Assembly (NCBI GenBank): GCA_964657925.1
Contig: CAZZWK010000020.1
Span: 1,359 to 65,358, forward strand
Reading direction: 5' to 3'
DNA from: an uncultured Dictyobacter sp.
Lineage (GTDB): Bacteria > Chloroflexota > Ktedonobacteria > Ktedonobacterales > Ktedonobacteraceae
DNA length: 64,000 nt
The first letter of the stretch is position 1, and every line of letters starts with the position of its first letter. Made by a program: the position numbers and the translations under genes. Below, in pieces: positions 11,115 to 61,804 of the stretch. Under the pieces are notes generated by a model. That model worked only from the letters and a program-made list of their open reading frames with translations. It made no database searches and was not told where the DNA came from.

Positions 11115-11546
11115 TCATGATGTGAACAGTCTGGTGTGAATGGGGTGACAACAGCGACGGAAGAGCAGGCGCATGGGCAAGACCTGCAACTGCTTGCGGC
11201 GGGTGCTAATGGCTCCTTTGGTCGGGATCTGCGCTTCGGCTTGGGGCCAGACGTACAAGAGGCCAGCCGCTATCGTTCGCAGGACCTCCACCACGTTGCA
11301 GGAGGGAAACAGGGAAAGGGCCATGATCAGGGAGATGATGGTGGGCATGTTAAGGGCACGTTCACGCTGTTCCCAGTTCTCACACTCCGAGAGCATGCAT
11401 CCGATCGTCTCGGCTGGATAGCACTCTTGCAAGGCATGCAGCACCAGATGATGGTTCAACTTGTCATCAGCGGGAATTTGGCGTAGTCTAAAGGACATAA
11501 GGAGGTTCCTTTCATATGTGGTTTGTTCATTGTCATTGTATTTCAT
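11115..11546 (-). pseudogene. Remnant of an IS4-family transposase (N-terminal domain only; DDE catalytic domain missing)
   Basis: 143-aa ORF. RERALNMPTIISLIMALSLFPSCNVVEVLRTIAAGL...KGAISTRRKQLQVLPMRLLFRRCC fits the IS4 transposase N-terminal domain pattern. The ORF stops before any DDE domain. Confidence 0.55.
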
Positions 11547-14518: not shown

Positions 14519-16549
14519 CTACGGAAAAGGATGAGGGACCACAGCAGCGCTATCCGGCACAAAATCCGTTTTACGGAACCCGGCGGTCCTGGGCACGGTG
14601 CGCAAACGCGGCAGGCTTAAAGCACGGTCTCGCCCCCAACCAAAATCTATCGGCAAAAGTCCAGGCACGATAACACAGGCCGTCTTCAACCCGCTGCTAG
14701 CCTGCTCAGGAGCCGTCTGATCTACAACGATCACATCCATACCTAGTCGCTGCATATGCTCGATACAAAAGAGCAGATCATCACGCAAATCGTAGCTTCG
14801 CGGGTGCTGCTCGTACCAGTCCCGATACGCCTCCTCTAACACGCGTACCGCTTGACCTTGAAAGAGAAAATCGATACGATCGCCCATCTCCGGTAGTGCA
14901 TACAGCGTCGCATGATCGGTCAATGTCGTTACTTTGCTATAATCCTGAACCATTGCCCGCAAATCCTCGACACGACCCTCGATACGCGCCCCAACATTGG
15001 AAACATAGGACGCAACCTCGCACAAAGCTCCCTGCAATGCGTCTTCCGGGTCCATTCCGCTACCAGCGGCCACAATCAGGTTCCCCAGGCCAGCCTCCTT
15101 CCGACGGGCGATAGCAACCATAGAAGGAATGCACACATCCATACGCGTATCGAAAAGATACAGGTCGTATCCCTGTCGCTCTATACGCTCAAGGGTGAAC
15201 AGGGTTTCGCGCCGCCTGGAACTGCGCGGGTCAATGCGCCCCGGTGCCAGTTGCGCGTACCACGTCAATAGAAAAGCATCGCGTTCGATCAGTTCCAACA
15301 ATCCATACAGTATCGCCTCCTCCATACAACTGCCCGTCGCACAACCATTGGAAGAATCTTGCACAAACTTTGCAGTATTGTTGCGCTGGCTCATATAATA
15401 CACCAGTTGCTCGGGCACCAGCAGGGCACGCTGGCCGCCAAATGAATACCCCCATACCCACGTCATCGCGCGCTCTGGGTCGAATGGCTGAAACATAGCC
15501 GTGTTTTTACGGTAAAATTCCTCAGGATACATACCACACGTGCGAGGGTCCAGGGCATCTGGTGCCAGGCGTTCGTAGCTATCGACAACATGCACGTGTT
15601 TCCCACGTGGGACGATACCACCATAACGCTCGATACCTTCCAGCAAACCCGCGTATAAACTCTGCTGATAACTATTGCCATGTCCACTCCACCAGACTTC
15701 GTAGACAACGGCATCGTTCCTTGCGCCAAACTGACCGGTAACCGGAGCTGTCAGCGTATTGTTCCATTCTGATAGCGCCACGCCACCAAGCATACCTGCA
15801 ACAGGATTGATCAACGCGGACAACGACAACGCATAGTCAGTAGCTCTGCTCAAACGATAGGCAGAGGGGTCCTTTTTCGGACGACTTTGTAAACACAGTA
15901 GCGCCCCTTGCGCGCTATCTACAAACGGTGTCGCACACATCGGGCAGGTTGAATCTCGCAACAGGTGATACCGGCTCACCCGCAACGACTCGCAGTTCAG
16001 CACATAAAAGCATCCTTGTTCCAACACAGGCGTGGTAGCAAGCAGATGAAAGATCCAGGTCAACAAAGAGCCAACCGCGTCCAGCACAAAAGACGGCATC
16101 TGCACACCGGTAGCGGGAACTAGCATCTGCCGTTTCCCGATAAAAGCTGTCTGCACTACCTGCGGGCGCGTGCTAAACCAGCGCCGTTCCAGGCAACAGG
16201 GGCACGCTGCATTAGCCTGGCCTGGATCGAAAAATGGTCCAAAGATGATTTGTGAACGATCGAGCCTGATCGGGTAGACAGGACAATCCTTCCAGTAACG
16301 CGTAGCCGCGTCCCCTTGTGGGCGCGCAGGGTCATCTCCCCGCATCGCATCTTTTGTCCCCAACACTCCTATATCAATCCATACTTGCTCCACCGGAAAA
16401 GCGAGTGCAGGTTTCTCCAGCTCAAAGAGCAATTGTTCCAGGTAGTGGTGGAGTAGATACGACTTCTCGTCTAGCGGCGAGTCGGAAGGTGTTACCACAC
16501 ATTGTATCCTATATTGCCCCAACACACGAGGAGACTCAACAGAAATCAT
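14519..16549 (-). CDS. Fused E1-like (cyclodehydratase C-type) / YcaO azoline-forming cyclodehydratase
   Basis: 676 aa. The N-terminal part has paired Cys motifs CPCCLERRW and CPMC, as in E1-like docking domains. The YcaO-type segments are GNSYQQSLYAGLLEGIERYGG, SSNGCATGSCMEEAILYGLLELIERDAF and GSGMDPEDALQGALCEV. The protein ends in PHPFP (nt 14522..14536), the PxPxP C-terminal motif of azoline-forming YcaOs. Confidence 0.85.
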   Translation of the reverse strand: MISVESPRVLGQYRIQCVVTPSDSPLDEKSYLLHHYLEQLLFELEKPALAFPVEQVWIDIGVLGTKDAMRGDDPARPQGDAATRYWKDCPVYPIRLDRSQIIFGPFFDPGQANAACPCCLERRWFSTRPQVVQTAFIGKRQMLVPATGVQMPSFVLDAVGSLLTWIFHLLATTPVLEQGCFYVLNCESLRVSRYHLLRDSTCPMCATPFVDSAQGALLCLQSRPKKDPSAYRLSRATDYALSLSALINPVAGMLGGVALSEWNNTLTAPVTGQFGARNDAVVYEVWWSGHGNSYQQSLYAGLLEGIERYGGIVPRGKHVHVVDSYERLAPDALDPRTCGMYPEEFYRKNTAMFQPFDPERAMTWVWGYSFGGQRALLVPEQLVYYMSQRNNTAKFVQDSSNGCATGSCMEEAILYGLLELIERDAFLLTWYAQLAPGRIDPRSSRRRETLFTLERIERQGYDLYLFDTRMDVCIPSMVAIARRKEAGLGNLIVAAGSGMDPEDALQGALCEVASYVSNVGARIEGRVEDLRAMVQDYSKVTTLTDHATLYALPEMGDRIDFLFQGQAVRVLEEAYRDWYEQHPRSYDLRDDLLFCIEHMQRLGMDVIVVDQTAPEQASSGLKTACVIVPGLLPIDFGWGRDRALSLPRLRTVPRTAGFRKTDFVPDSAAVVPHPFP

Positions 16550-16647: not shown

Positions 16648-17694
16648 TTAAACTGTCTCAAAATCCACCACACCTTTTGCAGCCATATTCTCCTCTAACG
16701 CCCTTCGCATCAAATATGCCAGATAGATCTCATCTGGAATCATTGTTCCCAGACGATTGTTGGTCATATGAATATAGCTTGATAGCAGCATTGTGTAGAC
16801 AAACGCTCGGTCATCAAAGGCCCTTGGCTGATAGTGCGTCAAACTGTTCTGAAAAATCAGTTTTCGCTCGCTGACAAGCGGGTCCAACCTTGCCTTGAGT
16901 TCACGCACATGCGCGGCCCATTCTTGCTCAAAGAAATTCAGCCTTCCCTGCCCTTCCTGTACGCTCGTCTTCTCTAAATGCTGCACGCGCCGCCGCAAGC
17001 TCGGTGCCATCCTCTCGAACTTTTTCTCACATTGAGCTGGGGTCGCGACGGCAGCTTCAGTATAGCGCTCCTTCCAAAATCGTTCGTAGCGGGCCAGAAA
17101 GGTGATCACCGCCTGCTCATCTTCCAGCAGGGCGAAACACAGGGGCAACGCGAGTTGCATGGAGAGACCAAGCATGATCGAACGCACATGCACGTTCGCG
17201 CTACCAATCAATTTGAAAATGAGGTCGCTCGATTTCTCAAAATGCCATTCGGCCACCTCCACGCCGTGGAGACCCCCATATCGCTCGTATTCGGCCTCGT
17301 AAGCAATAAAGTGCAGCGAGTTGTTGGGCCGAACAGGCATAGTATCGCGCTCTCCATACACCTGTCTCCATTTCTCCTGGCTGTATTCCGTGATGAACAT
17401 GCGTTTATAAAAATCCGCCAGGCGCTCACCCTCGGAGGTATAAAGCGATGGGTGCTGCTTCAGATACGCGGCTATGCTTTCTTGAGCCAATGCCTTTACT
17501 TCTTCCGCGACACCCGCCTCAGGCAGCAGTCTGAGCCGTATATGCGGCCCCTCTTGCCAGTATCTGATGAAAAAATAACGTTGAATGAGTTTTCGCCTGC
17601 GACAGACATCAATCAAGGGCGCAATGGCTTCTAGCAGCAACGGCTCCGGACTGCCAGCATAGAAAATATGCATACTGATCCACTGTTCACTCAT
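16648..17694 (-). CDS. Thiopeptide-type/LanB C-terminal-like (SpaB_C) protein: glutamate-elimination enzyme or [4+2] pyridine synthase
   Basis: MSEQWISMHIFYAGSPEPLLLEAIAPLIDVCRRRKLIQRYFFIRYWQEGPHIRLRL and the C-terminal SYIHMTNNRLG are hallmark patterns of this family. ATG 17694 overlaps the upstream stop as ATGAGTGA. The ORF track start at 17730 is less likely. Confidence 0.8.
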   Translation of the reverse strand: MSEQWISMHIFYAGSPEPLLLEAIAPLIDVCRRRKLIQRYFFIRYWQEGPHIRLRLLPEAGVAEEVKALAQESIAAYLKQHPSLYTSEGERLADFYKRMFITEYSQEKWRQVYGERDTMPVRPNNSLHFIAYEAEYERYGGLHGVEVAEWHFEKSSDLIFKLIGSANVHVRSIMLGLSMQLALPLCFALLEDEQAVITFLARYERFWKERYTEAAVATPAQCEKKFERMAPSLRRRVQHLEKTSVQEGQGRLNFFEQEWAAHVRELKARLDPLVSERKLIFQNSLTHYQPRAFDDRAFVYTMLLSSYIHMTNNRLGTMIPDEIYLAYLMRRALEENMAAKGVVDFETV

Positions 17695-20461
17695 CGAAAT
17701 CTCCTGTATTGGTTTCCCACACAAACTCACTCACATACGACCGACCATCCTGCTGCAACCAGAGGTCATCGCGGTCAGGTAACATCTCGGTGATGATCAC
17801 ACCGTCCGTCTCAGCACGCACTGTAGCCTCCAGTAAAGCAAGCGAAAAATAGTTTTCAAAATCGACGTACAGCGGTTTGTACGTTCGTCTTTTTCGCTCC
17901 ACTCCCTGAGCACCATCAGGCTTCACATCCAGGGTCACAAAAACGCTAGCCGGTAGCTTGTGCTTTTTGCGCCAACGCGCGACTCCCAGGAAAAAGTCAG
18001 CGTCGCTCTGGCCGCTTTGCCGCCGCGGGAAAACGCCCGCTTCCAGTTTCCAATAGGCTCGCTGTAAAATCAAGCGTTTATACCTGAGTCGGGGATAAAA
18101 GACTACACCCTCCCGCTTGATACATCTGCCCTCTACTAGCTCACTGGGCACGTTCTTCCATAGATCGAGCAGGCACGTCGTCACAAACGTAAAGTTGAAC
18201 AATACCTGCTGTATCTCCGGTAATGCCATAGGCAACAAAAACCCCAGGTAGAGAGGAATCACTTCTTTACCCAGCCGTTTCGAATAGAGGCGCAACCGTC
18301 CCTGCTCACCATCATCTTGAATGCACAGATCTTCAAGCAAAATCTGTTCATCCTGTGGACGTGAACTTAGATCTCCGGGACAGACAAGTTCATATGCCGT
18401 TACCTGAGGGTGCAGATTCAGGTTCGTCGCATCATAGCCCCCTTTTAACTCCGCGAACACTGCCCCCCGCGGCTGTAGCTGCTCCAGATGCTCGCGTAAC
18501 TCGCAGACAAAATCCTGCCCCTCTTCCGCGTCAAAAAAATGGGCGAAGCGCGAAAACATCAAGGTACAACCTGTATAAATATGATTGATCACAAGACGAG
18601 CCTCATCATTGACCCGCAGGTACTGCGAAAAATACGATTGTGAAGCAAAAGGCGCACCACTCCTCGGCACGTATGGCAATAGCTCTGCAACAAAATCATC
18701 TTCGAGCACCAGTTCATCCTGACCCGCTGGCAGATCTCTATATGCTCGCTCGACAGCGTTGGTCAGCACCTGTTGCGCACTATTTAACTGCTCGATCTCC
18801 GCTTGTTGAAAAAAATTCACATAACGTCTGCCCGAGGTGGTCCCCACTGTCCCCGCGTTTTTTAGATAATGGACGAAAAAGCGCTGACGAAAATCGTAGG
18901 CGAAGGATAAAAAATCATCGCAACATCCGCCCACCCCATACCGGGCCTGAAAATATCCCCTGGTTACTAATCTTTTGGGCAGGTTGAGATCAAAAAGTGG
19001 CAGCACCTGTTGAAACTCGGCTGTGCTATCAAGCATCGGCTGCCACGCTGTTTCGTTGGCGACCAGCTTTTGAGGTCGGAACACCGTATCCTCGTAGAGA
19101 ACCGTCTGCGGAAGTGGAGTGTGCTCCTGCCCCAATAGCGCGTAACATGCGCGCACCAGTTGCTCGACCTCTGCACGTAGACCACGGCGTTCGACGGCTG
19201 ACGCGCGTTCATATGCCTTCGTCACTATCTCGACCCTCGCAAGCCTGCACGCAACCTCCTCTAGAGCAGGGATTTCTATAGCCCGTAATGCCTTGCGGTA
19301 GTAGGCTATAGGATATTTCTGGTGCATATCCACGGCGAGATCAGGAACGACCAGCAGCCCCAGGCGTATAAGATGCGCCAGGTAAGCACCAACCTCCTCA
19401 CACGCGTTTTGAAATGGCGGCAGGTTGCAGAGATCGGCCAGGAGTTGGTGAAAGCGCAGACGACGCCCATCACCCAGCAGATCGATGATGGCGCCTAAAA
19501 GCGATCCGACTGGCAGGTAAAAAATATTTTCATGCACGACCTCCAATGGCGCAACATCACTTTCATCTCTCTCATCCTCACTTTGCATGCGACGCACGTA
19601 TCTGATCTGACCATGCTCCACGCGCCAGCCCGGCGTCAGACTCAGTGGCAGTTCCGCTCGCGTTTGAGGATGGGCCACGATCAGCGCCGCGAGTTTCGTC
19701 AAAATAGCCATATTCAGGCGCGTAAAACTCTTCTTCTGCACATCATCCGCCTGGTAGATGATATCTTTATCACCGGGCAAGGGCGCGAACTTACCCGCGC
19801 ACACCGCAGTAAACGTGCTAAATGGACTCGTCTTGTACGCGCTACGCAAGAGATATTCGAACAGCGAACGCTCAACCGTGCGCAGCGAACGATTGAGTTG
19901 CCGGTGATCGGAGGCAAGATAGGCATCGGTAACGCTGTCGAGGGCTGGACTGGCAAGCGCGATACCTCGACGAAAGTCTTCTATCGCGATGACCTTTTTG
20001 AGCAATACACGCTTCTGATCCATTTCCTGCGACAATATTTCCTGCCCACTCGCCAATAAAAACCGCCACTGCTCCCACATCTGCACCCATTCGGCGAGCA
20101 ACACATACGTCCCCGCGGGAAGAACGCTGGCGAACCTGCTCACCTCTTCGCTCGCGGCAAAGGGTCTCATATTGAAAACATCCCGTTTCACCTGGAGTAG
20201 ACGACTCCTGAGCACTCGCTCCTGAGCGCAAGCACCAATCGCATCATGCAATGCATCCACCAGACTGTCCCTACAGCTGATCAGTTTCTCCTCAAGCGCC
20301 ACGACAGTCTCTATCCACGCAGTGGTTTCGCGAAATTGTAAAACATCGACCGTGTCGGTAGGAAGTCCGCCCACGCGTAACAAAAACGGCGATGTGATCG
20401 TCTTATCCACTGCACCTATAGCACCTGTCATAACATCTTCCCCTCTCGCTCGCATATGCAC
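17687..20461 (-). CDS. LanB-type lantibiotic dehydratase, N-terminal (tRNA-Glu-dependent glutamylation) type
   Basis: 924 aa. It has SPFLLRVGGLPTDTVDVLQF near the N-terminus and a ...YKPLYVDFENYFSLALL... tail typical of Lant_dehydr_N proteins. I recognised no elimination domain. The start may be ATG 20431 (MTGAIGAV), which has a purine-rich SD. Confidence 0.8.
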   Translation of the reverse strand: MHMRARGEDVMTGAIGAVDKTITSPFLLRVGGLPTDTVDVLQFRETTAWIETVVALEEKLISCRDSLVDALHDAIGACAQERVLRSRLLQVKRDVFNMRPFAASEEVSRFASVLPAGTYVLLAEWVQMWEQWRFLLASGQEILSQEMDQKRVLLKKVIAIEDFRRGIALASPALDSVTDAYLASDHRQLNRSLRTVERSLFEYLLRSAYKTSPFSTFTAVCAGKFAPLPGDKDIIYQADDVQKKSFTRLNMAILTKLAALIVAHPQTRAELPLSLTPGWRVEHGQIRYVRRMQSEDERDESDVAPLEVVHENIFYLPVGSLLGAIIDLLGDGRRLRFHQLLADLCNLPPFQNACEEVGAYLAHLIRLGLLVVPDLAVDMHQKYPIAYYRKALRAIEIPALEEVACRLARVEIVTKAYERASAVERRGLRAEVEQLVRACYALLGQEHTPLPQTVLYEDTVFRPQKLVANETAWQPMLDSTAEFQQVLPLFDLNLPKRLVTRGYFQARYGVGGCCDDFLSFAYDFRQRFFVHYLKNAGTVGTTSGRRYVNFFQQAEIEQLNSAQQVLTNAVERAYRDLPAGQDELVLEDDFVAELLPYVPRSGAPFASQSYFSQYLRVNDEARLVINHIYTGCTLMFSRFAHFFDAEEGQDFVCELREHLEQLQPRGAVFAELKGGYDATNLNLHPQVTAYELVCPGDLSSRPQDEQILLEDLCIQDDGEQGRLRLYSKRLGKEVIPLYLGFLLPMALPEIQQVLFNFTFVTTCLLDLWKNVPSELVEGRCIKREGVVFYPRLRYKRLILQRAYWKLEAGVFPRRQSGQSDADFFLGVARWRKKHKLPASVFVTLDVKPDGAQGVERKRRTYKPLYVDFENYFSLALLEATVRAETDGVIITEMLPDRDDLWLQQDGRSYVSEFVWETNTGDFDE

Positions 20462-20492: not shown

Positions 20493-22139
20493 CTAAACAA
20501 ATTGAGCATTGAAACTGGCATTATTTTTGAGGCCATAGCCGATGGGGAGAAAAAGCATCGAACGCTCGTCCATACCATCCAGGCCAAGGGCTGTGTTCAA
20601 GGCAAGATTGTCGAATCCGAGCGCGGCCCCACAATTGAAACCGAGAGCGCTCGATGCCAGATAAGCACTTTGCGCCACCAGTCCCACCTCGGCATTCAAA
20701 ATTCTATAACCCCGATTTCCATAAGCGGCGAGCATGCGATGCGGTTTTCCCACAATCACCAGCAGAGCCGCCACCTCGCCCAGGTTATAGTTGCGCAGAA
20801 AGTAGTGCTGCTGGAGAAAAAGAGAAAAATCCTGACGAGACACCTCCCACAAACAGTGTCGCGTGGAGTCATACGCGTAGGCACCGCGTTGGAGACCCTC
20901 GATATTGTTTACAAATATCATCAAACGTGTGAAAGCAGGCGTTTCATCCTGATCGCTGCGATACGAGCGACAGGCCGACACAAAGGCAAGCATCGTCGCG
21001 AAATGCGCTAATTGCAGGGGGCAACAACTTGAAAAACGCCCAAACCCCGATTGCCGCCGCCGAAAAATGTCCAGCAGGTCGTCTTCAAGCAACGCCTGCA
21101 CCGGCTCAGGAAGCGCGATAGCCCCCCTGAATTCACCTGACTCGCCGGGCTGACTAAACCAGTCGCAACTCGCTTCGCGCACGACCTTGGCATCAGGAAG
21201 CGGCTCTTCTGAAATTAGAGAGGAGAAATGCACCGCTTCGACGGTAGGGAACCGCGTCACACGTTTGGAGCGCTGGAACGCTGGTCTTGTAACGTATGGC
21301 TCGCTCTTCCCTGGCAACAATTCCCGTTGCCCAGAAGATTCGTCGTGTTCGCCGCAAGCGGGAAGGGGAATCACCACAAAAGCGCTCTCAGACGCCGTTT
21401 CAAGGCCGAGCAGCCGATTCAATTCTTCGTCGCAATACCAGAAGAGAAAAGGCAGGTCAATACCTAAACCCGTACCCAATAGGCGTAAAGATCCCAAAAG
21501 TGCCCCTACATCCTGGGTAACCACGTGGTAAGCATACGAATGATACTTGAAGGCATTCTTCCAGAAGTTGAGCGATACGACAAGAAACTGATCGGTCGCC
21601 AGCGCGGTAGGATGATTGCGTACGGCGACACGAATGCGTCGCGTAAAGTCACCAACCAATAAACGTGCCAGCGCGTGATGGGCCGGATCATAGTGATACA
21701 CACCCGCTCGCAAAGATCCACCTTGCCCACACACCCAGAAAAGTTCCGTGGGATACCTTCCCCCACCCGAGGCTGTACCACGTCCAAAGATGGTCTGAGC
21801 ATAACGCGTCCGCTCACGCTCGTCACGATTCCAATTCACATCAAAACGACGATTGAGCAGGCCGTGCGCGAAAAGCAATAGCGTGGAAAGATCCGCGAGA
21901 TTCATCCCAGCGGAGACCGCTAGTGGGGAACTGATGCGATCGAGTATATGCGCCATTGAGGCAAGCTTCCGCGGAACACAGTCCGGCAAGGGGAAACGCT
22001 CAACCTGTCGGTACACTTTATAACGCGAGGGTTGATCTTTCCAATCAGGAACAAAATTTTTCGGCTCCATCGGCTCGACACCGTGACGAAAAACAGCCTC
22101 AATATAGCGCGTACAAATATCCGTTTGTCGATTGAGCAT
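20493..22139 (-). CDS. SagB/McbC-type FMN-dependent azoline dehydrogenase
   Basis: DWKDQPSRYKVY is an N-terminal SagB-type signature. NFWKNAFKYHSYAYHVVTQDVGALLGSL carries the Lys-Tyr motif. The C-terminal nitroreductase fold reads NRGYRILNAEVGLVAQSAYLASSALGFNCGAALGFDN. I prefer ATG 22139 (SD ggaag upstream) because the ORF track start 22193 lies inside a hairpin. Confidence 0.8.
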   Translation of the reverse strand: MLNRQTDICTRYIEAVFRHGVEPMEPKNFVPDWKDQPSRYKVYRQVERFPLPDCVPRKLASMAHILDRISSPLAVSAGMNLADLSTLLLFAHGLLNRRFDVNWNRDERERTRYAQTIFGRGTASGGGRYPTELFWVCGQGGSLRAGVYHYDPAHHALARLLVGDFTRRIRVAVRNHPTALATDQFLVVSLNFWKNAFKYHSYAYHVVTQDVGALLGSLRLLGTGLGIDLPFLFWYCDEELNRLLGLETASESAFVVIPLPACGEHDESSGQRELLPGKSEPYVTRPAFQRSKRVTRFPTVEAVHFSSLISEEPLPDAKVVREASCDWFSQPGESGEFRGAIALPEPVQALLEDDLLDIFRRRQSGFGRFSSCCPLQLAHFATMLAFVSACRSYRSDQDETPAFTRLMIFVNNIEGLQRGAYAYDSTRHCLWEVSRQDFSLFLQQHYFLRNYNLGEVAALLVIVGKPHRMLAAYGNRGYRILNAEVGLVAQSAYLASSALGFNCGAALGFDNLALNTALGLDGMDERSMLFLPIGYGLKNNASFNAQFV

Positions 22140-22158
22140 AGTCTCTTCCTGCTCGCAC

Positions 22159-22201
22159 GATGACTTTGCCTCGCACAGGCGCGCGCAAGGCAAAAGTCAT
22201 C
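22159..22201 (-). promoter_or_regulatory. Intercistronic stem-loop between the precursor gene and the dehydrogenase gene
   Basis: gatgactttgcc (22159..22170) pairs with ggcaaaagtcatc (22189..22201) with a one-base bulge, and a few further inner pairs follow. It lies about 40 nt after the precursor stop and 19 nt before ATG 22139. Confidence 0.5.
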
Positions 22202-22240: not shown

Positions 22241-22444
22241 CTAAATCGTGCTACAACTACTGCTGCAACAACTTGTCGTGAAACATGTGTTACAGGATTG
22301 CACCGGCAAAGCCCCGTCGGCCTGCTCAGAAGTGATCAAATCTTCAATTTCAAATGTCTCTATGTCGAGCTGATGCAGTTCTTCTTGCAGGTTGCTAAAT
22401 GGACTCATTAGCTTCGGCATATGTTGTTGTTCCTGAATTGGCAT
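22241..22444 (-). CDS. RiPP precursor peptide (thiopeptide-like): leader plus Cys/Ser/Thr-rich core SCNTCFTTSCCSSSCSTI
   Basis: 67 aa: MPIQEQQHMPKLMSPFSNLQEELHQLDIETFEIEDLITSEQADGALPVQ-SCNTCFTTSCCSSSCSTI. A strong SD (aaggagga) lies 5-6 nt upstream of ATG 22444. In the last 18 residues, 15 are Ser/Thr/Cys. The gene sits between modification-enzyme genes. Confidence 0.85.
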   Translation of the reverse strand: MPIQEQQHMPKLMSPFSNLQEELHQLDIETFEIEDLITSEQADGALPVQSCNTCFTTSCCSSSCSTI

Positions 22445-22498: not shown

Positions 22499-24823
22499 TT
22501 ACGCGGACCTCGTCAGCAAAACAGTTCCACTCATCATCGTCCCCGCATTCCAGATATCAGCGGTGGTAGTATTCACAAAAAGAATGTCACGCCCCTGCTT
22601 ATAGAGATACTCTTCCAGATGCTGCACATCCACAAACGTTTTCTGAAAACTGCGCGTGGACGCAAGGGGCGAGACAAAATCGAACGTAGGGACAAATTCT
22701 GGAAGAAACAAATCTTTATCTATATGATGCTTATTCCCAGGCCCAACCACATTCCCATCTCTAGCGGCAAACGCGTAGGGCAAACCATGCGTTTGCTCTA
22801 CGCGTTCGCCCAGAGCTTCAGTAAGGTCGCCCCGCTTTTCATAAAGCAGCGTTTGCAACTTCCCTATCAACTGGAGTAATGCATTTCTGGCCGCATGAAT
22901 AGAAGAAAGCCCATAGCCGATTCCGCAAGGCTGCTGCACACTTTCGCCATTTGTGCAGACCGCCAGCATAAGAGGAAGTGGCGAAGCGGACAAAACCTCA
23001 AAAAGTGTGTACTGGTACTCGAAATGCCGTAGGCTGCGCAACAAAAAAGTCAGGTCCGCATCAATATCTTCCAGTGTTTCTGGGTCGATCACAGCCACCG
23101 CGATACGTCCCTGGAGCGCTTCTTGTATATGCTCATAAGCCAGGGCGGAGGTAAGACCCGTAGCCAGCATCTCCCCAAAACTCGTGTGCACTCCTGAGCC
23201 TGCTGAAGTCCTTTCAAAAACACAGCGCCGGTTGAGATAGCTAGTGGGGTAGACGGCTGCGGCAGGGACGTAACACACGCGTTGCCTGGAGAACGAAAAC
23301 GCTGGCAACCACTCACAGCGCGTGTCCTCCATAAAAGCAGCCACGCCCGACCAGCCAGCAAGTTGTTGTGCCACGATAGCATCTTTACCCTGTCGCACCA
23401 GCTCGCTACGCTTTGCCAACAGCATCGTGCGAACGTCGGGTAGACTGTTTGTATACTGCCCGATCGCCTCGCGTAAAACGGCCATACGCGCATCAAGCAG
23501 CGTCCCGCTCTCAAAGGCCATCACCACAGGGGAGGTCGAAAGCACCGGAGAGGCGACCGTCAGTTGGCTGACTTTGAGAGGAAGCTGGATCAATGTATCG
23601 TCCTGGTAATCACTCAACAAACCAGTATGCGCTTGCATGAGCACATCTGCGCGACGCAGGACATCGGCATCTGATACCCTATCTCGCTTCCCTTCGACAA
23701 CTTCGAGCAAGATTTGCGCAGCGCGCTCAGGACTACCCTGAGAACACAGCGGACAGAGCGGATACTGCATCAGGCTTTCGTGATAGGACTCCATCGTCTC
23801 CGTGTCCTGGCAGATAATCCCTGCATCCAGTTCCGAGGGGAGATGTCCTGCAAAGAGTTTGAAAAGCTCAAAACCGACGGCGTTACCGACATGCCTGGCG
23901 ATGGGAGTAAAAAATGTGGTATCTGCGCTGGTCAACGCGTTATCAAGCACAAAGGATTTCCATAGCGTGGTTCCCTGCTCTGCGGACATGCGCGCCGCAA
24001 GACGCACCTGCGCGCATAACCAGCACGGACCCCCCGGTTTTACGATTGGTCCAAGCACAGCCTGCCCTGCGCAAAAAACTACCGGTAGAAACTGGCATCC
24101 TTTACGCATACAGTTCTTTTGCAACGCGAGCACCTCCGTGAACGCACTCGTGTCCGAGCAGTAAACAACCGTATCGTAATCAGCTGATCTCTGAAAAGAT
24201 GGGGCGTCACGCGGATCAAAACCAATCTTCGACACACATACCTCGACCCCGGATTGGCATATGTTGTCCACCTCAGCCTCTAGTTGCCGTAGAGCAGTAT
24301 CCCCTTCATCCAATAATGCCAGGGAAAGGTCTCTGATCCCATTGCGCATCAAAGAAATCCCTAAAGCGACAAAAGCCTCGCCCGCACCAACAAGCAGCAC
24401 ACGACTCTGCCTGAACGCCTTGAATCTCTCCACCGGTCGGTCGGCATAGTGATCGATGAGCTCAATCTGCGCTCGAAAACGGCGCAGCACCTCGTCATCC
24501 AATAATCCGGCAGCCTCAGGGATGCATTGCTTGAGCACGCCCCTTTGCAACAACGTATCGATCAGACGTAGAACCGTCTCCCGTTGCGTTGCTCCTAGCC
24601 CCTCGCATAACTCATTTACCGTGTGCTCCCCATTCATATGTGGGCTTAAAGTGGCAAGCAATTGATACACGGATCTCCCTTTTAGTGAAAACACCGCATC
24701 ATCGCTTTGCAAGAAAACACCATCCCTGCTCTGCAGAAAAATTGAGTTCTGCTTGAGCTTTGGACGCACTTCAGCAAGGTTATCCATCATCCACTCCTGT
24801 CGGCGGGCGGCCTCTCTCATCAT
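22499..24823 (-). CDS. Ocin-ThiF-like (E1-like) RiPP maturation protein with an N-terminal RRE-type winged helix and a C-terminal degenerate YcaO-like region
   Basis: 774 aa. GRSVYQLLATLSPHMNGEHTVNELCEGLGATQRETVLRLIDTLLQRGVLK looks like a RiPP recognition element. VLLVGAGEAFVALGISL is a Rossmann-like glycine motif. The C-terminal half (ARMAVLREAIGQYTN, ERTSAGSGVHTSFGEMLATGLTSALAYEHIQ, GYGLSSIHAARNALLQL) parallels YcaO blocks with altered key residues, and there is no PxPxP tail. The start may be ATG 24790 or 24787, after an AGGAG. Confidence 0.65.
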   Translation of the reverse strand: MMREAARRQEWMMDNLAEVRPKLKQNSIFLQSRDGVFLQSDDAVFSLKGRSVYQLLATLSPHMNGEHTVNELCEGLGATQRETVLRLIDTLLQRGVLKQCIPEAAGLLDDEVLRRFRAQIELIDHYADRPVERFKAFRQSRVLLVGAGEAFVALGISLMRNGIRDLSLALLDEGDTALRQLEAEVDNICQSGVEVCVSKIGFDPRDAPSFQRSADYDTVVYCSDTSAFTEVLALQKNCMRKGCQFLPVVFCAGQAVLGPIVKPGGPCWLCAQVRLAARMSAEQGTTLWKSFVLDNALTSADTTFFTPIARHVGNAVGFELFKLFAGHLPSELDAGIICQDTETMESYHESLMQYPLCPLCSQGSPERAAQILLEVVEGKRDRVSDADVLRRADVLMQAHTGLLSDYQDDTLIQLPLKVSQLTVASPVLSTSPVVMAFESGTLLDARMAVLREAIGQYTNSLPDVRTMLLAKRSELVRQGKDAIVAQQLAGWSGVAAFMEDTRCEWLPAFSFSRQRVCYVPAAAVYPTSYLNRRCVFERTSAGSGVHTSFGEMLATGLTSALAYEHIQEALQGRIAVAVIDPETLEDIDADLTFLLRSLRHFEYQYTLFEVLSASPLPLMLAVCTNGESVQQPCGIGYGLSSIHAARNALLQLIGKLQTLLYEKRGDLTEALGERVEQTHGLPYAFAARDGNVVGPGNKHHIDKDLFLPEFVPTFDFVSPLASTRSFQKTFVDVQHLEEYLYKQGRDILFVNTTTADIWNAGTMMSGTVLLTRSA

Positions 24824-27773: not shown

Positions 27774-29999
27774 CTACAGATACCGGCTGGTCAGGGATTC
27801 TTTGGCGTCGAGCAGATCGCGAGGGGTGCCTTCGAAGATGACCATACCGCCCTTGTGGCCGCCTTCCGGACCCATATCAATGATCCAGTCGGCGTTGCGA
27901 ATCACATCGAGGTGATGCTCAATCACAATCACGGTGTTCCCGCCATCGACCAGCCGATTCATGATGGTGAGCAGGCGACCGATATCCGACAGATGCAGGC
28001 CGGTGGTGGGCTCGTCCATGACGTAGATGTTGCTCTGCTTGTGGAGTTCGCTGGCGAGTTTGATGCGCTGGCACTCGCCACCTGAGAGGGTGCTCAAGGG
28101 CTGGCCCAGGGTCAGGTAGTCCAGACCCACGTCGCTCAACGCCTGCAGCTTTGGCTGCACTGCTTTGATCTTCAAAAACGCCAATGCCTGCTGAACGCTC
28201 ATATTCAAAACATCAGCAATGGATTTCCCGTTCAATGGGTAGGCCAGTACCTCGTCCTTAAAGCGTTTCCCACCGCACACTTCACAAGGAAGCTTGACCC
28301 CCTCAAGGAAACCGAGATCGGTGTAGATTACACCAAGTCCCTGACAGTTAGGACAGGCACCCTTTGAGTTAAAACTAAACAGGCCAGCATCGACATTGTT
28401 GGCTGCTGCAAAAGCCTTGCGCACATCATCCATGATGCCGCTATAGGTCGCGGGATTGGAACGACTGGAAGTGCTCAGGGATGATTGATCAATCACCACC
28501 GCCTCCTGGTGCTGACCCAGAAAGGCTTCATTGATTAACGAGCTTTTGCCTGAACCAGCCACGCCAGTGATGACCGTCAGCACGCCAGTGGGAATATTCA
28601 CACTGACATCCCGCAAATTATTCGCTGTAGCGTGGACAATTGGCAGAGCGCCGGTCGTCTGGCGAAAACTCTCCTTAAGCGGCCTCTTACGCAGTAAATG
28701 GTTGCCGGTCAGCGTATCGGCCTGCAGCAGACCGCTGAAATCACCCTCATAGACAACCTTGCCTCCTTCGCTCCCGGCATATGGTCCCATATCGACGACG
28801 TAATCGGCCCGCTGAATCACATCAGGATCGTGCTCGACGACGATGACTGTGTTCCCTTTGTCGCGCAACTTTTCCAGCAGTTCGTTCAGACGATGGACAT
28901 CGCGCGGGTGAAGTCCGATGCTCGGCTCGTCAAAGATGTACATGACATCGACCAGGCTACCGTTAAGATGCTTGACCATTTTGACCCGCTGCGATTCACC
29001 CCCAGACAGGGTATCGGTGGATCGATCCAGGCTGAGATACTCCAGGCCAATCTCCACCAGATGGCGCAGCCGTTCGGTCAACGTGCGAACAATTGGCGCC
29101 GCCGGTTCTGTGATATCCTTGACGACCTCTAAAAGCTCATCAATCTGCATCGCTGCCATATCGGCAATAGTGTAGCCATTGATTTTGCAGCTCAGCGCTG
29201 CTTGATTGAGCCGGGCACCCTTGCAGAGCGGACAGGGGCCGAGCTTCAAAAAAGGCTCGACCTTTTGTCGTATGCGAGGCGAGAGCGTCTGGATATCGCG
29301 CGCAACAAACCTACGATTGAACTTGTACACCAGACCCTCATAGGTGTTGTACGGCAGATCGGTACGTTTGCGCGGCTCGCTGTAGAGCAGCAGATCCCGT
29401 TCCTCTGCTGTATAATCGGCTATCTTCTTGTCGTTGTCGAAGTAGCCAGAACGGGCATAAAGATCGCTCTCCCAGCCAGCCAGTCCCGGGGCGATGACAG
29501 CGCCCTCGTTCAACGATTTTGTTGTATCGATCAGCGCTTCCGAGGTAATGCCGACCTTACGGCCCAGGCCATTGCACTCCAGGCACATGCCCTGTGGATC
29601 ATTGAAGGAAAAGGCATTGGCAAGACCTACATACGGCTTTCCGATGCGTGAAAAGAGCAAGCGCAACACTGGCGCGATGTCAGTGACCGTGCCCACGGTC
29701 GATTGCGATCCGCCCCCCAGGCGTTTCTGGTCAACAATCACCGCCATGCTCAGGTTCTCGATCACATCGGCGTCTGGTTGGGGATAGCGCGGCAGAAAAT
29801 TGCGTACAAACATACTAAAATTCTCAAACAGGAGCCGTTGCGCTTCGTTGGCAATGGTATCAAACACCATTGAGGACTTCCCTGAGCCAGATACGCCGGT
29901 AAAAATGATGATTTTGCGCTTGGGCAGCCTCAGCGAGACACCCCTCAAATTGTTCTCGCGCGCACCCCGAATCTCAATGTATTCCTGAGACATACTCAT
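27774..29999 (-). CDS. UvrA-like ATPase paralog (short form, two ABC modules)
   Basis: 741 aa. The N-terminus reads IEIRGARENNLRGVSLRLPKRKIIIFTGVSGSGKSSMVFDTI. The second Walker A is TGVAGSGKSSL. Signature-type LSGGE motifs (LSGGESQR, LSGGECQR) and zinc-module Cys pairs (CPLCKG, CPNCQG, CEVCGG) are present. Confidence 0.85.
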   Translation of the reverse strand: MSMSQEYIEIRGARENNLRGVSLRLPKRKIIIFTGVSGSGKSSMVFDTIANEAQRLLFENFSMFVRNFLPRYPQPDADVIENLSMAVIVDQKRLGGGSQSTVGTVTDIAPVLRLLFSRIGKPYVGLANAFSFNDPQGMCLECNGLGRKVGITSEALIDTTKSLNEGAVIAPGLAGWESDLYARSGYFDNDKKIADYTAEERDLLLYSEPRKRTDLPYNTYEGLVYKFNRRFVARDIQTLSPRIRQKVEPFLKLGPCPLCKGARLNQAALSCKINGYTIADMAAMQIDELLEVVKDITEPAAPIVRTLTERLRHLVEIGLEYLSLDRSTDTLSGGESQRVKMVKHLNGSLVDVMYIFDEPSIGLHPRDVHRLNELLEKLRDKGNTVIVVEHDPDVIQRADYVVDMGPYAGSEGGKVVYEGDFSGLLQADTLTGNHLLRKRPLKESFRQTTGALPIVHATANNLRDVSVNIPTGVLTVITGVAGSGKSSLINEAFLGQHQEAVVIDQSSLSTSSRSNPATYSGIMDDVRKAFAAANNVDAGLFSFNSKGACPNCQGLGVIYTDLGFLEGVKLPCEVCGGKRFKDEVLAYPLNGKSIADVLNMSVQQALAFLKIKAVQPKLQALSDVGLDYLTLGQPLSTLSGGECQRIKLASELHKQSNIYVMDEPTTGLHLSDIGRLLTIMNRLVDGGNTVIVIEHHLDVIRNADWIIDMGPEGGHKGGMVIFEGTPRDLLDAKESLTSRYL

Positions 30000-47200: not shown

Positions 47201-47314
47201 TTTACTGCGACCAATAATCGTAACGGCCTTGGTAATCGGGAAAGTACTTTGAGTGAGCGAACCAGCAAGAAAGGTAATCGAAGCCATTATTTGTGGTTTT
47301 TGTTCGAGAGCCAC
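44249..47314 (-). CDS. Triple-FHA-domain ABC transporter (FHA x3, ABC ATPase, ABC-2/ABCG-type permease), Rv1747-like architecture
   Basis: 1021 aa. The FHA cores are VTIIGRSKKNDIVVTDTVVSRVHARL, VVNIGRDPHNDIVINEANISRLHLRL and AIVIGRSPDNDVVLNHPQVSAHHTRL. Walker A is GGSGAGKTTLLDALSG and the signature is LSGGQRKRVSIA. The C-terminal part is a multi-TM ABC-2 domain. GTG 47314 is preceded by aagggga. Confidence 0.85.
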   Translation of the reverse strand: MALEQKPQIMASITFLAGSLTQSTFPITKAVTIIGRSKKNDIVVTDTVVSRVHARLIYGDDVWKIEKLSQTSKVTLNEEAVEQAELFDGAIVGLGEKVNFVFSLTRIDTSQPTTVIAVPAAQDQDRVVTDAHLDVQAASAEPASEYPTPERIERSPSTEIASFAAMGLSSIEVTDNTTGSRRVYPLLKEVVNIGRDPHNDIVINEANISRLHLRLVHEKEQWVLLHPHPDQPRTMNGLIYQGNVIKGDEPFRKVLAHRDIFRIGNEYGLLVTLRYLDGNNPREAAPRIQPIQLGSTAIVIGRSPDNDVVLNHPQVSAHHTRLVQEQETYRLTDLDSTNHTYINGVQADSQLLQVNDEIRIGPFRLVYTQGRLMPFDESNGIRIDALNLTKVGSNQVMLLNDISLSIPARSFVALVGGSGAGKTTLLDALSGLRPAHEGAVFYNGQDYYRNLAVFSSQLGYVPQDDIIHRELTVERALYYAAKLRLPRDFQEAQIALRIDEVLDDVEMKHRRSLLISQLSGGQRKRVSIALELLAKPSIFFLDEPTSGLDPGLDRKMMVLLRKLADKGHTIVLVTHATNNINVCDYVCFLAQGGNLAYFGPPEEAKAYFQQPDFAEIYSVLEPSEEKRTVPLEARETFENSQTYQRYVSERLSQMPKSGTQYLREQKQQVSASRRGALRRQFLLLTRRYIELLRNDFGNLAILLLQAPLFGLLLLVFIKGVGPDGFNRLNVLQCPATAAIVAVNGYPDVPTPNNPVVSQSCQRVENFLRDDAAGKAYAHARGGAINALQDFIEPGQDYQPTVLFLMAFAAIMFGCINAIREFVKEVPIYRRERTVNLGIVPYMFSKIAVLGLLCLLQSLVLVGCVAIFDPFRYSILLPPFLEVYITVALTSIAGLMLGLLVSAVSPNNDRAMSFLPLILLPQVIFSGTIFPLTNWFLQYPAMLFPIRWAMAALGSSVGLHSDKLNKDQLFGNTYTYHSTLFSIYSQQEAWHYLLLMWLALVVMILLLGVGIGYFLKRKDIQK

Positions 47315-54112: not shown

Positions 54113-56851
54113 ATGCACCTACCATCCGAGACCGCACTGGATCAACTGTGCCAATGTCTTGCAAACGAGATGCACCGCCTATACCGCAAAGTACCAGCAG
54201 TGGAAACACGCTGGATTGTGCGACAAAGCACTGATCCCGCGCAACTCTGGCTCGTATTCACCCATCAAAGTACCACCCTGGTCGAACAGGGATGGAAACT
54301 GCATATCGCAGCCGACCCGTCTACCGCAATACCGCTGCTCAAACGGGTGCTCGTGCCACTGCTGCTTTCCAACTCGTCGTTTAAAGTGATTGCCTCCCTG
54401 CATCATCTCACCGCTCTCAACCAGGGGCAGTACGGATGGAGCCAGATCGGAAAATATATCACTATTTATCCAGCAAGCCAGCAAGAGGCGGTCCGACTGG
54501 CAAAGCTGCTCGATCGGCGCACACGCTCTCTATCCACGCTGACCATCCCTTCCGACCGGGTCTTGCGTGCGGGTAGCACGGTCCACTACCGCTACGGGAG
54601 CTTCCACAACACGCTTTCCATGCAGGAACCCACGGGTCTGATCTCACCGGCTATCCGCGCTCCCACAGGCGAACTGATACCTGACCGTCGTAACCATTCC
54701 TACGCGGTCCCGCCATGGTGCAGCGACCCGTTCAATGAAGCAGGCACCAATAGCGAACTCCCCGCAACGCAACGCATCCTGGCCGAACGCTACCTTCTCG
54801 CCAGGGTCATCGCTACCTCACTCAATCACACACTCTATCTCGCCGGTGACCTGCACAATGCACGCTCCTGCGTGATCAAGGGTCCCGGCAGCGTGTGGAA
54901 GCAGGGCGCAGAGCAAATCAACCAGGGTTTATTGCATGAAGCACATATACTCACCACACTCTCATCCCTGCCTCAGCTACCCAGACTCTACACCTGCATT
55001 CAGCAAGGAACACACATTTTCCTGGTTCTCGAAGATATTGTCGGTGAATCCCTTCACGACTATATGAAGAATATGCGAAATCAGGGCAAACCTCTCGAAA
55101 TTTCCCTGCTTCTAAATTGGGCCCGGCAGATAGCTACCATCCTCAAAGCCATTCATGCACACGAACTCGTCTACGCGGACCTCAAACCCTCAAACATCAT
55201 CATCGCGACGAGCGGTCAACTTCGCTTGCTCGATTTCGAACTGACCGATCGATGGGCAAGCCTACACATAGGCACTCGTGGAACAAGGGGCTACAGCTCT
55301 CCAGCGCGCCTCTCTGCTCTTCCTCTCGATCCCACCGACGATATCTACAGTTTCGGAGCCCTGCTCTACTTCATGGTTACAGCAGCCGATCCCGCGGAAG
55401 CACCACACCCCACAGAGTTACTGCGCCGCGCGCCGCACTGGTTTTCAGCGGCAGGCGTGTTGCTGCAAGACCTTATAGCGCACTGTCTGAGCCCAGTACC
55501 AACCTACACTGCGATGCAACAGGTGGTAGAGGCACTCGATGAACTCCACCCCCCACAGCCATATACGATACCATCCATATCAGATGCGCCAGGCACATGG
55601 AACCAGATCTCACTGAAACTGCTCCAAACGCTCCACGCCTCGGCCTCCCACAGCGCCAAGCAGGAGGGAATCTTCTGGCGTAGTTCCCACCCTATCAGCT
55701 ACGGCCTGGCTACCCGCGATATCAATACAGGCAACGCGGGCACACTGCTGGCACTCAGCGAACTGGTCGACGCCCATCCTGAATCAAGTCGACATTCTCT
55801 GCTGACCCAGGCCGCGCACTGCATGCGGCGCGCTCCACTCATCTGTGGACAGCCACTACCGGGTCTCTATATAGGTGAAGCAGGCGTGGGAGCAGCCCTG
55901 CTCAGGGCAGGACAGGTCTTGCACGACAGCGCACTGATCAGCGCAGCCGTCGAACGCGGCAAGCTCGTCGCATCTCTTGCCTACCAATCACCTGATCTCT
56001 TTCACGGTACCGCTGGTCGTTTACGCTTTCACCTCTGGCTCTGGGACGAAACGGGTGAGCGAGAACATCTCCTGCACGCGCTATCCTGCGGCGACCACCT
56101 GTTGGAGAGCGCGCGTACCAATGAGCAGCAGGAAACATTCTGGACAATTCCAGCCGGCTATCAGGCGCTCAGTGGACAAACCTATCTTGGCTATGCACAT
56201 GGCACAGCCGGTATCGCCGATGCCCTGCTAGATCTCTTTGAAACTACCGGTGACCAACGCTATGTCAATACACTCTGCGCAGCCGCCCGCTGGCTAGCAC
56301 GACAGGCGGTTATTGGGCCGGACGATGAAGTGGCATGGCCCAAACGCGAGGGCGAAGCGGTGACAGCTCCTTTCTGGTGCCACGGCGCCACCGGCATCGG
56401 CCAGTTCTTTTTGCACTTGGCACGACATACGTTCTTTGCACCAGCTGCCGAGCTCGCAATGCGCGCCGCTAACACGCTCAGCAAAACAACACTGTGGGCC
56501 AATCCAACCCAGTGCCACGGCCTGGCGGGCAACATTGAATTCCTGCTCGATATCTATCAGGCAACCGGAGAGTATAGGTACCGCGAGCATGCCTTCTCGC
56601 TCGCGCGCTGTCTCTACGCGTTTGAAGAAGCGCGCCACGGTCTCAGCGTTTTCCCATCAGAGGACCCCACAATCTATACTCCCGACTACATGGTTGGTTA
56701 TGCTGGCGTCGCTATGTGCGCCCTACGTCTCGCCTCACCGGAACACCGACCTCGCCAGCTCAGTCGAGCAGGATTTCGCTATCGCGACATTCAAGAGCAT
56801 ACACTGGGAAACGTATCTCCTCACAAGTCCGATACTTATAGTACCTTTTAA
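54113..56851 (+). CDS. Three-domain lanthipeptide synthetase (lyase, Ser/Thr kinase, LanC-like cyclase with Zn ligands), class IV LanL-type
   Basis: 912 aa. The N-terminal lyase-type block is GWKLHIAADPS...GKYITIYP. The kinase motifs are YADLKPSNIII and LLDFE. The cyclase motifs are GNAGTLLAL, GEAGVGAALLRAG, HGTAG, GYAHGTAGIADALLDL, FWCHGATGIG and QCHGLAGNIEFLLD. The Cys and Cys-His metal ligands are present. Confidence 0.85.
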   Translation: MHLPSETALDQLCQCLANEMHRLYRKVPAVETRWIVRQSTDPAQLWLVFTHQSTTLVEQGWKLHIAADPSTAIPLLKRVLVPLLLSNSSFKVIASLHHLTALNQGQYGWSQIGKYITIYPASQQEAVRLAKLLDRRTRSLSTLTIPSDRVLRAGSTVHYRYGSFHNTLSMQEPTGLISPAIRAPTGELIPDRRNHSYAVPPWCSDPFNEAGTNSELPATQRILAERYLLARVIATSLNHTLYLAGDLHNARSCVIKGPGSVWKQGAEQINQGLLHEAHILTTLSSLPQLPRLYTCIQQGTHIFLVLEDIVGESLHDYMKNMRNQGKPLEISLLLNWARQIATILKAIHAHELVYADLKPSNIIIATSGQLRLLDFELTDRWASLHIGTRGTRGYSSPARLSALPLDPTDDIYSFGALLYFMVTAADPAEAPHPTELLRRAPHWFSAAGVLLQDLIAHCLSPVPTYTAMQQVVEALDELHPPQPYTIPSISDAPGTWNQISLKLLQTLHASASHSAKQEGIFWRSSHPISYGLATRDINTGNAGTLLALSELVDAHPESSRHSLLTQAAHCMRRAPLICGQPLPGLYIGEAGVGAALLRAGQVLHDSALISAAVERGKLVASLAYQSPDLFHGTAGRLRFHLWLWDETGEREHLLHALSCGDHLLESARTNEQQETFWTIPAGYQALSGQTYLGYAHGTAGIADALLDLFETTGDQRYVNTLCAAARWLARQAVIGPDDEVAWPKREGEAVTAPFWCHGATGIGQFFLHLARHTFFAPAAELAMRAANTLSKTTLWANPTQCHGLAGNIEFLLDIYQATGEYRYREHAFSLARCLYAFEEARHGLSVFPSEDPTIYTPDYMVGYAGVAMCALRLASPEHRPRQLSRAGFRYRDIQEHTLGNVSPHKSDTYSTF

Positions 56852-61700: not shown

Positions 61701-61804
61701 ACCTGTCTGCCCGCGATGACATCATTGCCATCTGGCACATGGACGCTCACTCTTTTCCCAGGACACGTATGCCAACGCAAAGGCGCTTTGCCGATTTCGT
61801 TCAT
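58772..61804 (-). CDS. ABC exporter fusion: unknown N-terminal domain (about 240 aa), six-TM ABC domain, ATPase, and C-terminal cyclic-nucleotide-binding (CAP-type) domain
   Basis: 1010 aa. Walker A is GPSGSGKSS, the signature is MSGGQRQRLAIARA and Walker B is LILDEATSALD. The C-terminal YAAGEYIINQGEPGDAFYIVNFGQVEVLL...GEFFGEISLLDEQPRTASVRA is a cNMP-binding fold (nt about 58907..59266). A strong SD aaggaggag precedes ATG 61804. Confidence 0.8.
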   Translation of the reverse strand: MNEIGKAPLRWHTCPGKRVSVHVPDGNDVIAGRQVEALVSRLERFMDELVKVLVPAKSGGAIALYLVDAAFLTAEGGLATGAERDLVHVLDGVDKDAVFFVLYPDDADEELLSTLTQAALRRWFGEGAVSSPFFLNGLAGVVAAAAGVGTGIEELNTRVTDELKQGRTVSIFAQPASERETALQRDIAASFTAYLLTTHGAKALRQFLTIYDVERQDQAALSVYHRPLGQLEETWLNDMRKASGHKSAVLMFVELVLPLLRPYWVNDSKIMVYSLLGLTFNVVLPLSTKFLLDTIIPHKNVSLLLVFALAMFGFLLFNALIGIRRSQLTAVVVQHVVADLQQESFDHLQRLTHQFYGRAKVGDLMTRLSSDIQLVQQALSQVMGNGFMMILQTITSLIVLLYLQPLIGVLVVVIIPLVMVSYSVMGKRFQQASADSQRLAGETATSIQENISAHAVIKAFGLENSVIAAFHTRLMAQLKAAVRLEVIAALFQNSLLFASLVEQLIVLGVGGYMVIQGRITIGVLMAAWSVLPALLTPVSLLGIIIETIQTASGSLERIVELHSEPIAIADKLEAIELPVVKDALVFDHVRFSYESDRIILDDLSVTIPVGANVAIVGPSGSGKSSMISLLLRFWDPVAGRILWDGHDVRDVTLSSLREQIGLVFQDTFIFDTTVRENIAIGRKDATDNEVIAAARGAKLDEYISSLPAGYNTMLGERGVRMSGGQRQRLAIARALLRDPRVLILDEATSALDAQTEHEILETLDDVKQGRTTISVTHRLTVAATADHILVLERGKLVEQGSHEELLKRGGLYARLYQEQVGVSNKGAGNEQAVPPSDVARLRAIELLKTIDEDGLARVAAQMVRRRYAAGEYIINQGEPGDAFYIVNFGQVEVLLAHHGSRRRINVLDEGEFFGEISLLDEQPRTASVRAALPTECYVLTKGAFMQLLERDPKMYERVWQTIKQRRNELALVQAHMRQDDVMGGVGLLTTPTTAVGAEQVVLAYELHAQN

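Follow-up and report, generated by a model that had tools for sequence, protein, structure and literature searches.

Our analysis indicated that the 348-aa protein encoded between positions 16648 and 17694 of the 64-kb stretch of DNA studied here (hereafter, the window) is, with high probability, the subunit that eliminates glutamate in a split dehydratase of class I (LanB-type), that its operon has no pyridine synthase and that the product is likely linear. Paralogue scores, the tree and the catalytic columns of the alignment all point clearly to an eliminase. The peptide is most likely a linear (non-pyridine) polyazole/dehydroamino-acid product of the goadsporin/spongiicolazolicin kind, as judged by analogy with those systems.

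The 348-aa protein and its operon

The genes of the operon all lie on the minus strand and are given below in their order of transcription.

22499..24823, minus strand: ocin-ThiF-like/leader-binding protein with a degenerate C-terminal YcaO-like domain, 774 aa (TIGR03693 135 bits, TIGR03882 48 bits)
22241..22444, minus strand: precursor peptide, 67 aa, MPIQEQQHMPKLMSPFSNLQEELHQLDIETFEIEDLITSEQADGALPVQ-SCNTCFTTSCCSSSCSTI (TIGR03892, leader motif)
20493..22193, minus strand: SagB-type FMN dehydrogenase (azoline to azole), 566 aa from TTG (PF00881; TIGR03605 161 bits)
17687..20461, minus strand: LanB N-terminal (glutamylation) enzyme, LanB-N, 924 aa from GTG (PF04738)
16648..17694, minus strand: stand-alone Lant_dehydr_C/SpaB_C protein, 348 aa (PF14028, TIGR03891, residues, tree)
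14519..16549, minus strand: fused E1-like leader-binding domain and YcaO cyclodehydratase (TbtG/LazE/GodD-like), 676 aa (PF02624, E = 4.6e-84)

The 348 aa are translated from an ATG at position 17694, which is preceded at 6 nt by an AGGAG ribosome-binding site and is the start position of the homologues as well. The beginning of the gene and the stop codon of the upstream LanB-N gene overlap by 8 nt, and the two genes are translationally coupled. The initial annotation had ascribed the hallmarks of the SpaB_C family to this protein. The motifs that it quoted are indeed present, namely WISMHIFY (residues 5-12), FFIRYWQEGPHIRLRL (41-56) and IHMTNNRLG (308-316), and the full PF14028 (Lant_dehydr_C) model (1-255/255) matched with 153.6 bits against a cutoff of 24.4 (E = 1.4e-44), far above chance. 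TIGR03891 (thiopeptide-type bacteriocin biosynthesis protein) gave 95.4 bits against a cutoff of 48.45; with these curated cutoffs exceeded, the protein is a member of the Lant_dehydr_C/SpaB_C superfamily.

The 924-aa protein had been described as a LanB of stand-alone glutamylation size with no elimination domain. Congruently, its sole Pfam match was PF04738 (Lant_dehydr_N; residues 162-843, E = 1.5e-44), with the C-domain absent, and the SpaB_C profiles gave zero matches to it. Its identity is 52-55% with Ktedonobacteria orthologues and 24% with TbtB-like and LazB-like proteins, and the alignment of its homologues places the true start probably at the Met at residue 11 (about 20431). The start of SagB is probably also internal, 18-30 codons downstream of the called TTG, since the alignments to its orthologues (58-59% identity) begin at residue 19 or 31. 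A LazF-like eliminase-dehydrogenase fusion was considered and rejected: LazF has SpaB_C fused to a dehydrogenase, whereas the 566-aa SagB has no SpaB_C region by Pfam or profiles.

The 774-aa protein, in which the YcaO match is weak, is 42-47% identical to the product of the first 'YcaO' gene of related clusters and may act as the cyclodehydratase partner, in a TbtF/LazD-like role. The 676-aa protein matched TIGR03604 (331 bits) and TIGR03882 (72 bits), and is 34% identical to a TbtG-like and 30% identical to a LazE-like protein. As for the precursor, the leader is predicted to end in ...LHQLDIETFEIEDLITSEQADGALPVQ, with the leader/core junction between MPIQEQQHMPKLMSPFSNLQEELHQLDIETFEIEDLITSEQADGALPVQ and SCNTCFTTSCCSSSCSTI. 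The resulting core begins with Ser-Cys, contains an SSSC motif, and consists of Ser, Thr or Cys in 16 of its 18 residues. The precursor narrowly passed TIGR03892 (thiazolylpeptide-type bacteriocin; 25.8 bits, cutoff 25), and this marginal match rests on leader similarity. The enzymes of the operon all correspond to enzymes of thiopeptide clusters (TbtB, TbtC, TbtG and others), and the pyridine synthase is the one enzyme of those clusters that has no equivalent in the window.

Proposed catalytic residues

In NisB, the R786A, R826A and H961A substitutions leave glutamylation intact and abolish elimination (PMC4979651); the role of H961 in elimination is also described in PMC4341554. The initial annotation had proposed to look for this Arg/Arg/His set as a sign of elimination activity. 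We aligned a profile of 40 homologues of the 348-aa protein to NisB, MibB and MadB, and the three residues mapped to R55 (PHIRLR), R138 (EYERYGG) and H309 (YIHMTNNRL), all of them invariant in the 40 homologues, which argues for an eliminase. We propose R55, R138 and H309 as the putative catalytic residues for elimination. The resemblance to the elimination domain of NisB, MibB and MadB extends to the surrounding motifs and the fold, with the difference that elimination resides in a C-terminal domain of those enzymes and in a separate polypeptide here.

A column analysis also found positions that separate six eliminases from six pyridine synthases. At the column of H309, 6/6 eliminases carry His and 6/6 pyridine synthases Tyr, and at that of E322 the former carry Glu and the latter Arg; the window protein has His and Glu. 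It also carries W207 in an eliminase-specific column, R202/R205/F206 where the six pyridine synthases have their SxxSHxEGF motif, and a gap where these have an S-x-F-H insertion. These differences set it apart from TbtD, PbtD, TclM and LazC, with which it shares the SpaB_C fold (TM about 0.7 to TbtD/PbtD) and an N-terminal F.R.W..GPH.R motif.

These columns bear directly on a possibility raised by the initial annotation, a bifunctional enzyme performing both glutamate elimination and [4+2] aza-cycloaddition. The length of the protein (348 aa, compared with 267 aa for TclL), its best fold superposition on TbtD/PbtD, and a partial match to the pyridine-synthase model NF045556 (model positions 1-270), in which residues 220-287 align to TbtD 209-276, could be read in its favor. 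Nevertheless, in every column that distinguishes the two sets of six enzymes the protein has the eliminase state, known eliminases likewise match NF045556 below threshold, and the cores of the family have no conserved Ser pair. We consider a bifunctional enzyme extremely unlikely. This part of the earlier interpretation found no support, in contrast to its single SpaB_C gene, stand-alone LanB-N and missing activity.

Comparison with paralogue pairs

To obtain reference paralogues we used thiopeptide clusters found by tblastn against PLSDB plasmids: the micrococcin cluster on pBac115 (L006) with TclK/L/M, the lactocillin plasmid (L007), two lactazole-like clusters (L010, L014) encoding both LazC and the LazF fusion, and a thiomuracin-type cluster (L013), in which the pyridine synthase scores above the cutoff of the NCBI equivalog; one further Streptomyces eliminase/pyridine-synthase pair completed the set. 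When the window protein was the tblastn query, only one of the two SpaB_C genes was matched per thiopeptide cluster, and it was the eliminase every time: TclL (L006), the lactocillin homologue (L007), the LazF N-domain (L010, L014) and the TbtC-like protein (L013). The window protein was then scored against each member of the pairs with phmmer and with the family profile, as listed here (phmmer bits / family-profile bits).

TclL 61 / 105; TclM -2 / -1
LazF 37-39 / 64-86; LazC 19-21 / 20-21 (two clusters)
TbtC-like 46 / 71; TbtD-like 35 / 48

The eliminase outscored the pyridine synthase in every pair. In a neighbour-joining tree of 321 columns, the phylogenetic placement that the initial annotation had suggested, eliminases and pyridine synthases were split with 94% bootstrap, and the eliminase half took in the window protein along with its family, and three further single-copy proteins. 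Moreover, the TIGR03891 cutoff was passed by the window protein and the known eliminases, while the pyridine synthases gave no match.

The proteins TclL, TbtC and the LazF N-domain resemble the window protein in their PH(I/L)R(L/I)R, PE..(R/K)Y and H...NR motifs, in their place in the tree and in having their genes directly downstream of LanB-N. The identity of the window protein to TclL, TbtC-like and LazF-N eliminases is 26-29%. It is 25-80 aa longer than TclL and the TbtC-like proteins and has Arg at the position of NisB R826, where these have Lys. A further difference is that TclL, TbtC and LazF-N are accompanied by a pyridine synthase, and the window protein, within the 64 kb, is not.

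Signals pointing towards a pyridine synthase

Some of the results suggested the opposite assignment, in which the 348-aa protein would be the pyridine synthase and the eliminase the missing activity. Its top NCBIfam match by E-value was NF045556 (TbtD_PbtD_pyrid), and the 103 bits of that match slightly exceeded the 95 bits of TIGR03891, the opposite of what three calibrating eliminases showed. Its best PDB matches, by both sequence and fold, were TbtD, PbtD and TsrE/TsrL: the sequence searches listed TbtD and TsrE first, and Foldseek with an AlphaFold model (pLDDT 92) ranked TbtD/PbtD first, at a TM of about 0.70-0.73. The superposition on LanB C-domains was poorer (TM about 0.5).

Since the PDB matches contained no stand-alone eliminase structure, the fold ranking cannot separate the two activities, and the catalytic-residue columns disagree with it; we therefore rejected a pyridine synthase as the reading of the PDB and Foldseek rankings. 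The top rank of NF045556 was rejected as a guide because known eliminases also match this model below threshold: the window protein reached 103.2 bits against a cutoff of 325, over positions 1-270 of 354 only, compared with 434 bits for the TbtD-like control and 49-57 bits for the known eliminases. By reciprocal comparison, in the tree and by its catalytic residues, the protein groups with the eliminases. Furthermore, a glutamylating LanB-N with no eliminase would be a dead end, and the LanB-N gene is translationally coupled to this one. It is thus very improbable that the 348-aa protein is the pyridine synthase. The initial annotation had stated that one of the two thiopeptide activities is missing; because the phylogeny and the Arg/Arg/His residues identify the eliminase, the absent activity would be the pyridine synthase.

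Among the PDB matches, entry 7cww, a protein of SpaB_C fold from thiostrepton biosynthesis, has TsrE as its molecule name and TsrL in its title, and one review places tsrE among the quinaldic-acid genes (PMC5682303). Because of this naming conflict and the listing in the review, we used 7cww as a reference for neither activity.

Where fold searches and the top NCBIfam match mislead, as they do here, the discriminating positions can serve as an annotation guide for eliminases and pyridine synthases: His or Tyr at H..NR, Glu or Arg 13 residues further on, and the SxxSHxEGF motif.

Search for a second SpaB_C gene

The initial annotation had counted a single SpaB_C-type gene in the window, and no search added another. 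We found no second SpaB_C-like ORF in the 64 kb by tblastn, none when two SpaB_C profiles were run against the 448 ORFs of 60 aa or more from all six frames, and no further SpaB_C-type domain in Pfam scans of 36 of the larger ORFs. Likewise, phmmer with TclM, LclM, LazC-like and TbtD-like queries, together with two pyridine-synthase profiles, found no pyridine synthase in the window. The [4+2] cycloaddition enzyme that defines a thiopeptide cluster is thus not present within the 64 kb. An HExxH/M50-like leader protease was also searched for in the window and was not found.

Related loci

Homologues of the 348-aa protein with 40-79% identity are abundant both in Ktedonobacteria and in many actinomycete genera; the best genome match in the GTDB representative set was Ktedonosporobacter rubrisoli (55%). 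The arrangement of the window, in which a LanB-N that lacks its own elimination domain adjoins the eliminase gene, is kept in 13 related loci, and in 13/13 there is one SpaB_C gene within +-10 kb, always directly after LanB-N. The six thiopeptide loci examined have two SpaB_C genes each (6/6), with the pyridine synthase within the operon.

The conserved operon, shared by Ktedonobacteria and many actinomycetes, encodes a ThiF/YcaO-like protein, the precursor, a SagB dehydrogenase, LanB-N, the eliminase and a YcaO protein. All five enzymes of the window are syntenic with Ktedonobacteria loci, at 42-59% identity. A metagenomic locus (L020) has a gene order identical to that of the window, including the YcaO gene after the eliminase, and the identity between its five enzymes and their counterparts in the window is 47-59%. 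The precursors of the related loci share a leader motif, L..L..ETFEI(E/Q)D, which reads L..L..ETFEIED in the window, and their cores are dominated by Ser, Thr and Cys, highly variable in length and sequence, and without a conserved Ser pair.

Most of the relatives encode an HExxH intramembrane metalloprotease of ~420 aa directly downstream of the eliminase, for example at the following positions.

L002, 11071-12333: HExxH protease
L004, 11020-12300: HExxH protease
L005, 11113-12357: HExxH protease
L021, 5031-6287: HExxH protease

This protein is similar to the daptide protease, with 151 bits for NF041824, less than the cutoff, and its presence in most relatives implies that the leader is removed by proteolysis. 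It is absent from the window cluster and from the L020 and L022 loci.

The same cluster type was seen on an Actinomyces oris plasmid (NZ_CP116225.1, a megaplasmid of human oral origin; L008, 3894-17833), with an eliminase 33% identical to that of the window. Four precursors are encoded in tandem at this locus, STCSSSSSTSSCSSCSSTSSCATF being an example of their cores, and the eliminase gene is followed by one for a 360-aa protein that matched no family.

The related loci helped us to weigh another of the possibilities put forward by the initial annotation, that the missing gene is encoded elsewhere. A pyridine synthase from another part of the genome would then act in trans, with the 348-aa protein still an eliminase and a pyridine-macrocyclic thiopeptide as the product. 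Thiopeptide leaders are ejected by the pyridine synthase itself, and a trans-acting enzyme would fit the lack of a leader protease that the window cluster shares with L020 and L022, as well as the precursor passing TIGR03892. In addition, the Ser-Cys start and the SSSC motif of the core recall the lactazole core (PMC7210931). However, SSSC-like runs are frequent by composition in the Ser/Cys-rich cores of the family, a second SpaB_C gene within +-10 kb was present in 0/13 related loci from different organisms, all six thiopeptide clusters keep the pyridine synthase in the operon, and most family members have a dedicated HExxH protease. We regard a pyridine synthase acting in trans as unlikely. 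A pyridine thiopeptide whose core is macrocyclised with neither a canonical pyridine synthase nor a leader protease in the operon, either by a second activity of the eliminase or by an unrelated enzyme that our searches did not recognise, has a very small probability.

The linear product, which the initial annotation had listed as its first option, is the best supported of its three: the 13 loci have a single SpaB_C gene, most of them encode a leader protease, their cores vary, and goadsporin, which has been studied by experiment, provides a precedent.

Proposed pathway and known systems

Working from domain content, residue conservation, paralogue assignment and the synteny of the family, we infer the enzyme activities, their order, the structure of the product and the removal of the leader. 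The 774-aa ThiF-like and 676-aa E1-like/YcaO proteins would bind the 67-aa precursor by its leader and cyclodehydrate Cys and some Ser/Thr residues to azolines, which SagB would oxidize to azoles. The 924-aa LanB-N would then use Glu-tRNA(Glu) to glutamylate the Ser/Thr side chains that remain, and the 348-aa protein would beta-eliminate the glutamate, by means of R55, R138 and H309, to leave dehydroalanine or dehydrobutyrine. As the operon has no [4+2] pyridine synthase, the result would most likely be a non-pyridine linear peptide.

Goadsporin, from Streptomyces sp. TP-A0584, is made in this manner: GodD/GodE form the azoles and the split LanB GodF/GodG the dehydroalanines, there is no cyclase, and the product is linear (PMC5303826). 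In the same study LazF was able to replace GodG (PMC5303826). Goadsporin and the spongiicolazolicins are described as the RiPPs outside the thiopeptides that combine azoles and dehydroamino acids via a split LanB (PMC10676384). The window has the gene content of this type, with a YcaO cyclodehydratase, a SagB dehydrogenase, a split LanB and no cyclase. Its enzyme set can be likened to that of goadsporin item by item: a YcaO cyclodehydratase, an FMN dehydrogenase, LanB-N, a stand-alone LanB-C eliminase and a ribosomal precursor, and neither cluster has a [4+2] enzyme. In contrast to goadsporin, we saw neither a GodH-type acetyltransferase nor a GodB peptidase-ABC exporter beside the window cluster, which adds the 774-aa ThiF/YcaO-like protein and has a core much richer in Ser/Thr/Cys (16/18) than that of goadsporin. 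The 'Dehydrazoles' were considered as a match and rejected, as their dehydratase is of the LanM type (DUF4135) instead of a LanB (PMC10676384). We suspect that the Streptomyces members of the cluster family correspond to the spongiicolazolicin cluster.

With this assignment, a thiopeptide-like cluster with one SpaB_C gene poses no puzzle: the goadsporin logic suffices, and no new bifunctional enzyme is needed. The cluster family is large, extending over Ktedonobacteria, many actinomycetes and an oral Actinomyces plasmid, and we found no characterisation of it in the literature searched, nor a structure for its Ser/Thr/Cys-rich, hyper-modifiable products. The family may merit product discovery.

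Other genes in the window

The right end of the window holds a separate RiPP locus, marked by two class III/IV-type lanthipeptide synthetases, and an ABC exporter is encoded between their genes.

54113-56851, plus strand: class III/IV-type lanthipeptide synthetase with RamC_N, kinase and LanC-like domains, 912 aa
57186-58760: FAD_binding_4 oxidoreductase, adjoining the ABC exporter gene
58772-61804, minus strand: ABC exporter (transmembrane and ATPase regions) with a C-terminal cyclic-nucleotide-binding domain
61860-63959, minus strand: class III/IV-type lanthipeptide synthetase with kinase and LanC-like domains, 699 aa as called

Positions 27774-29999 (minus strand), some 3 kb upstream of the azole/dehydratase operon, encode a soluble protein of 741 aa. 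It has one or more ABC ATPase domains as well as a second P-loop region (UvrA-like/ABC-F-like), gave no transmembrane-domain match and might serve as a resistance factor. The N-terminal domain of an IS4 transposase is present as a fragment (11115-11546, minus strand) about 3 kb from the downstream end of the operon. Finally, we observed a 1021-aa fusion of three FHA domains with an ABC ATPase and an ABC-2 membrane domain (44249-47314, minus strand), and a gene (39536-40780, plus strand) whose product combines a CBM56 carbohydrate-binding module with a bacterial thaumatin-family domain.
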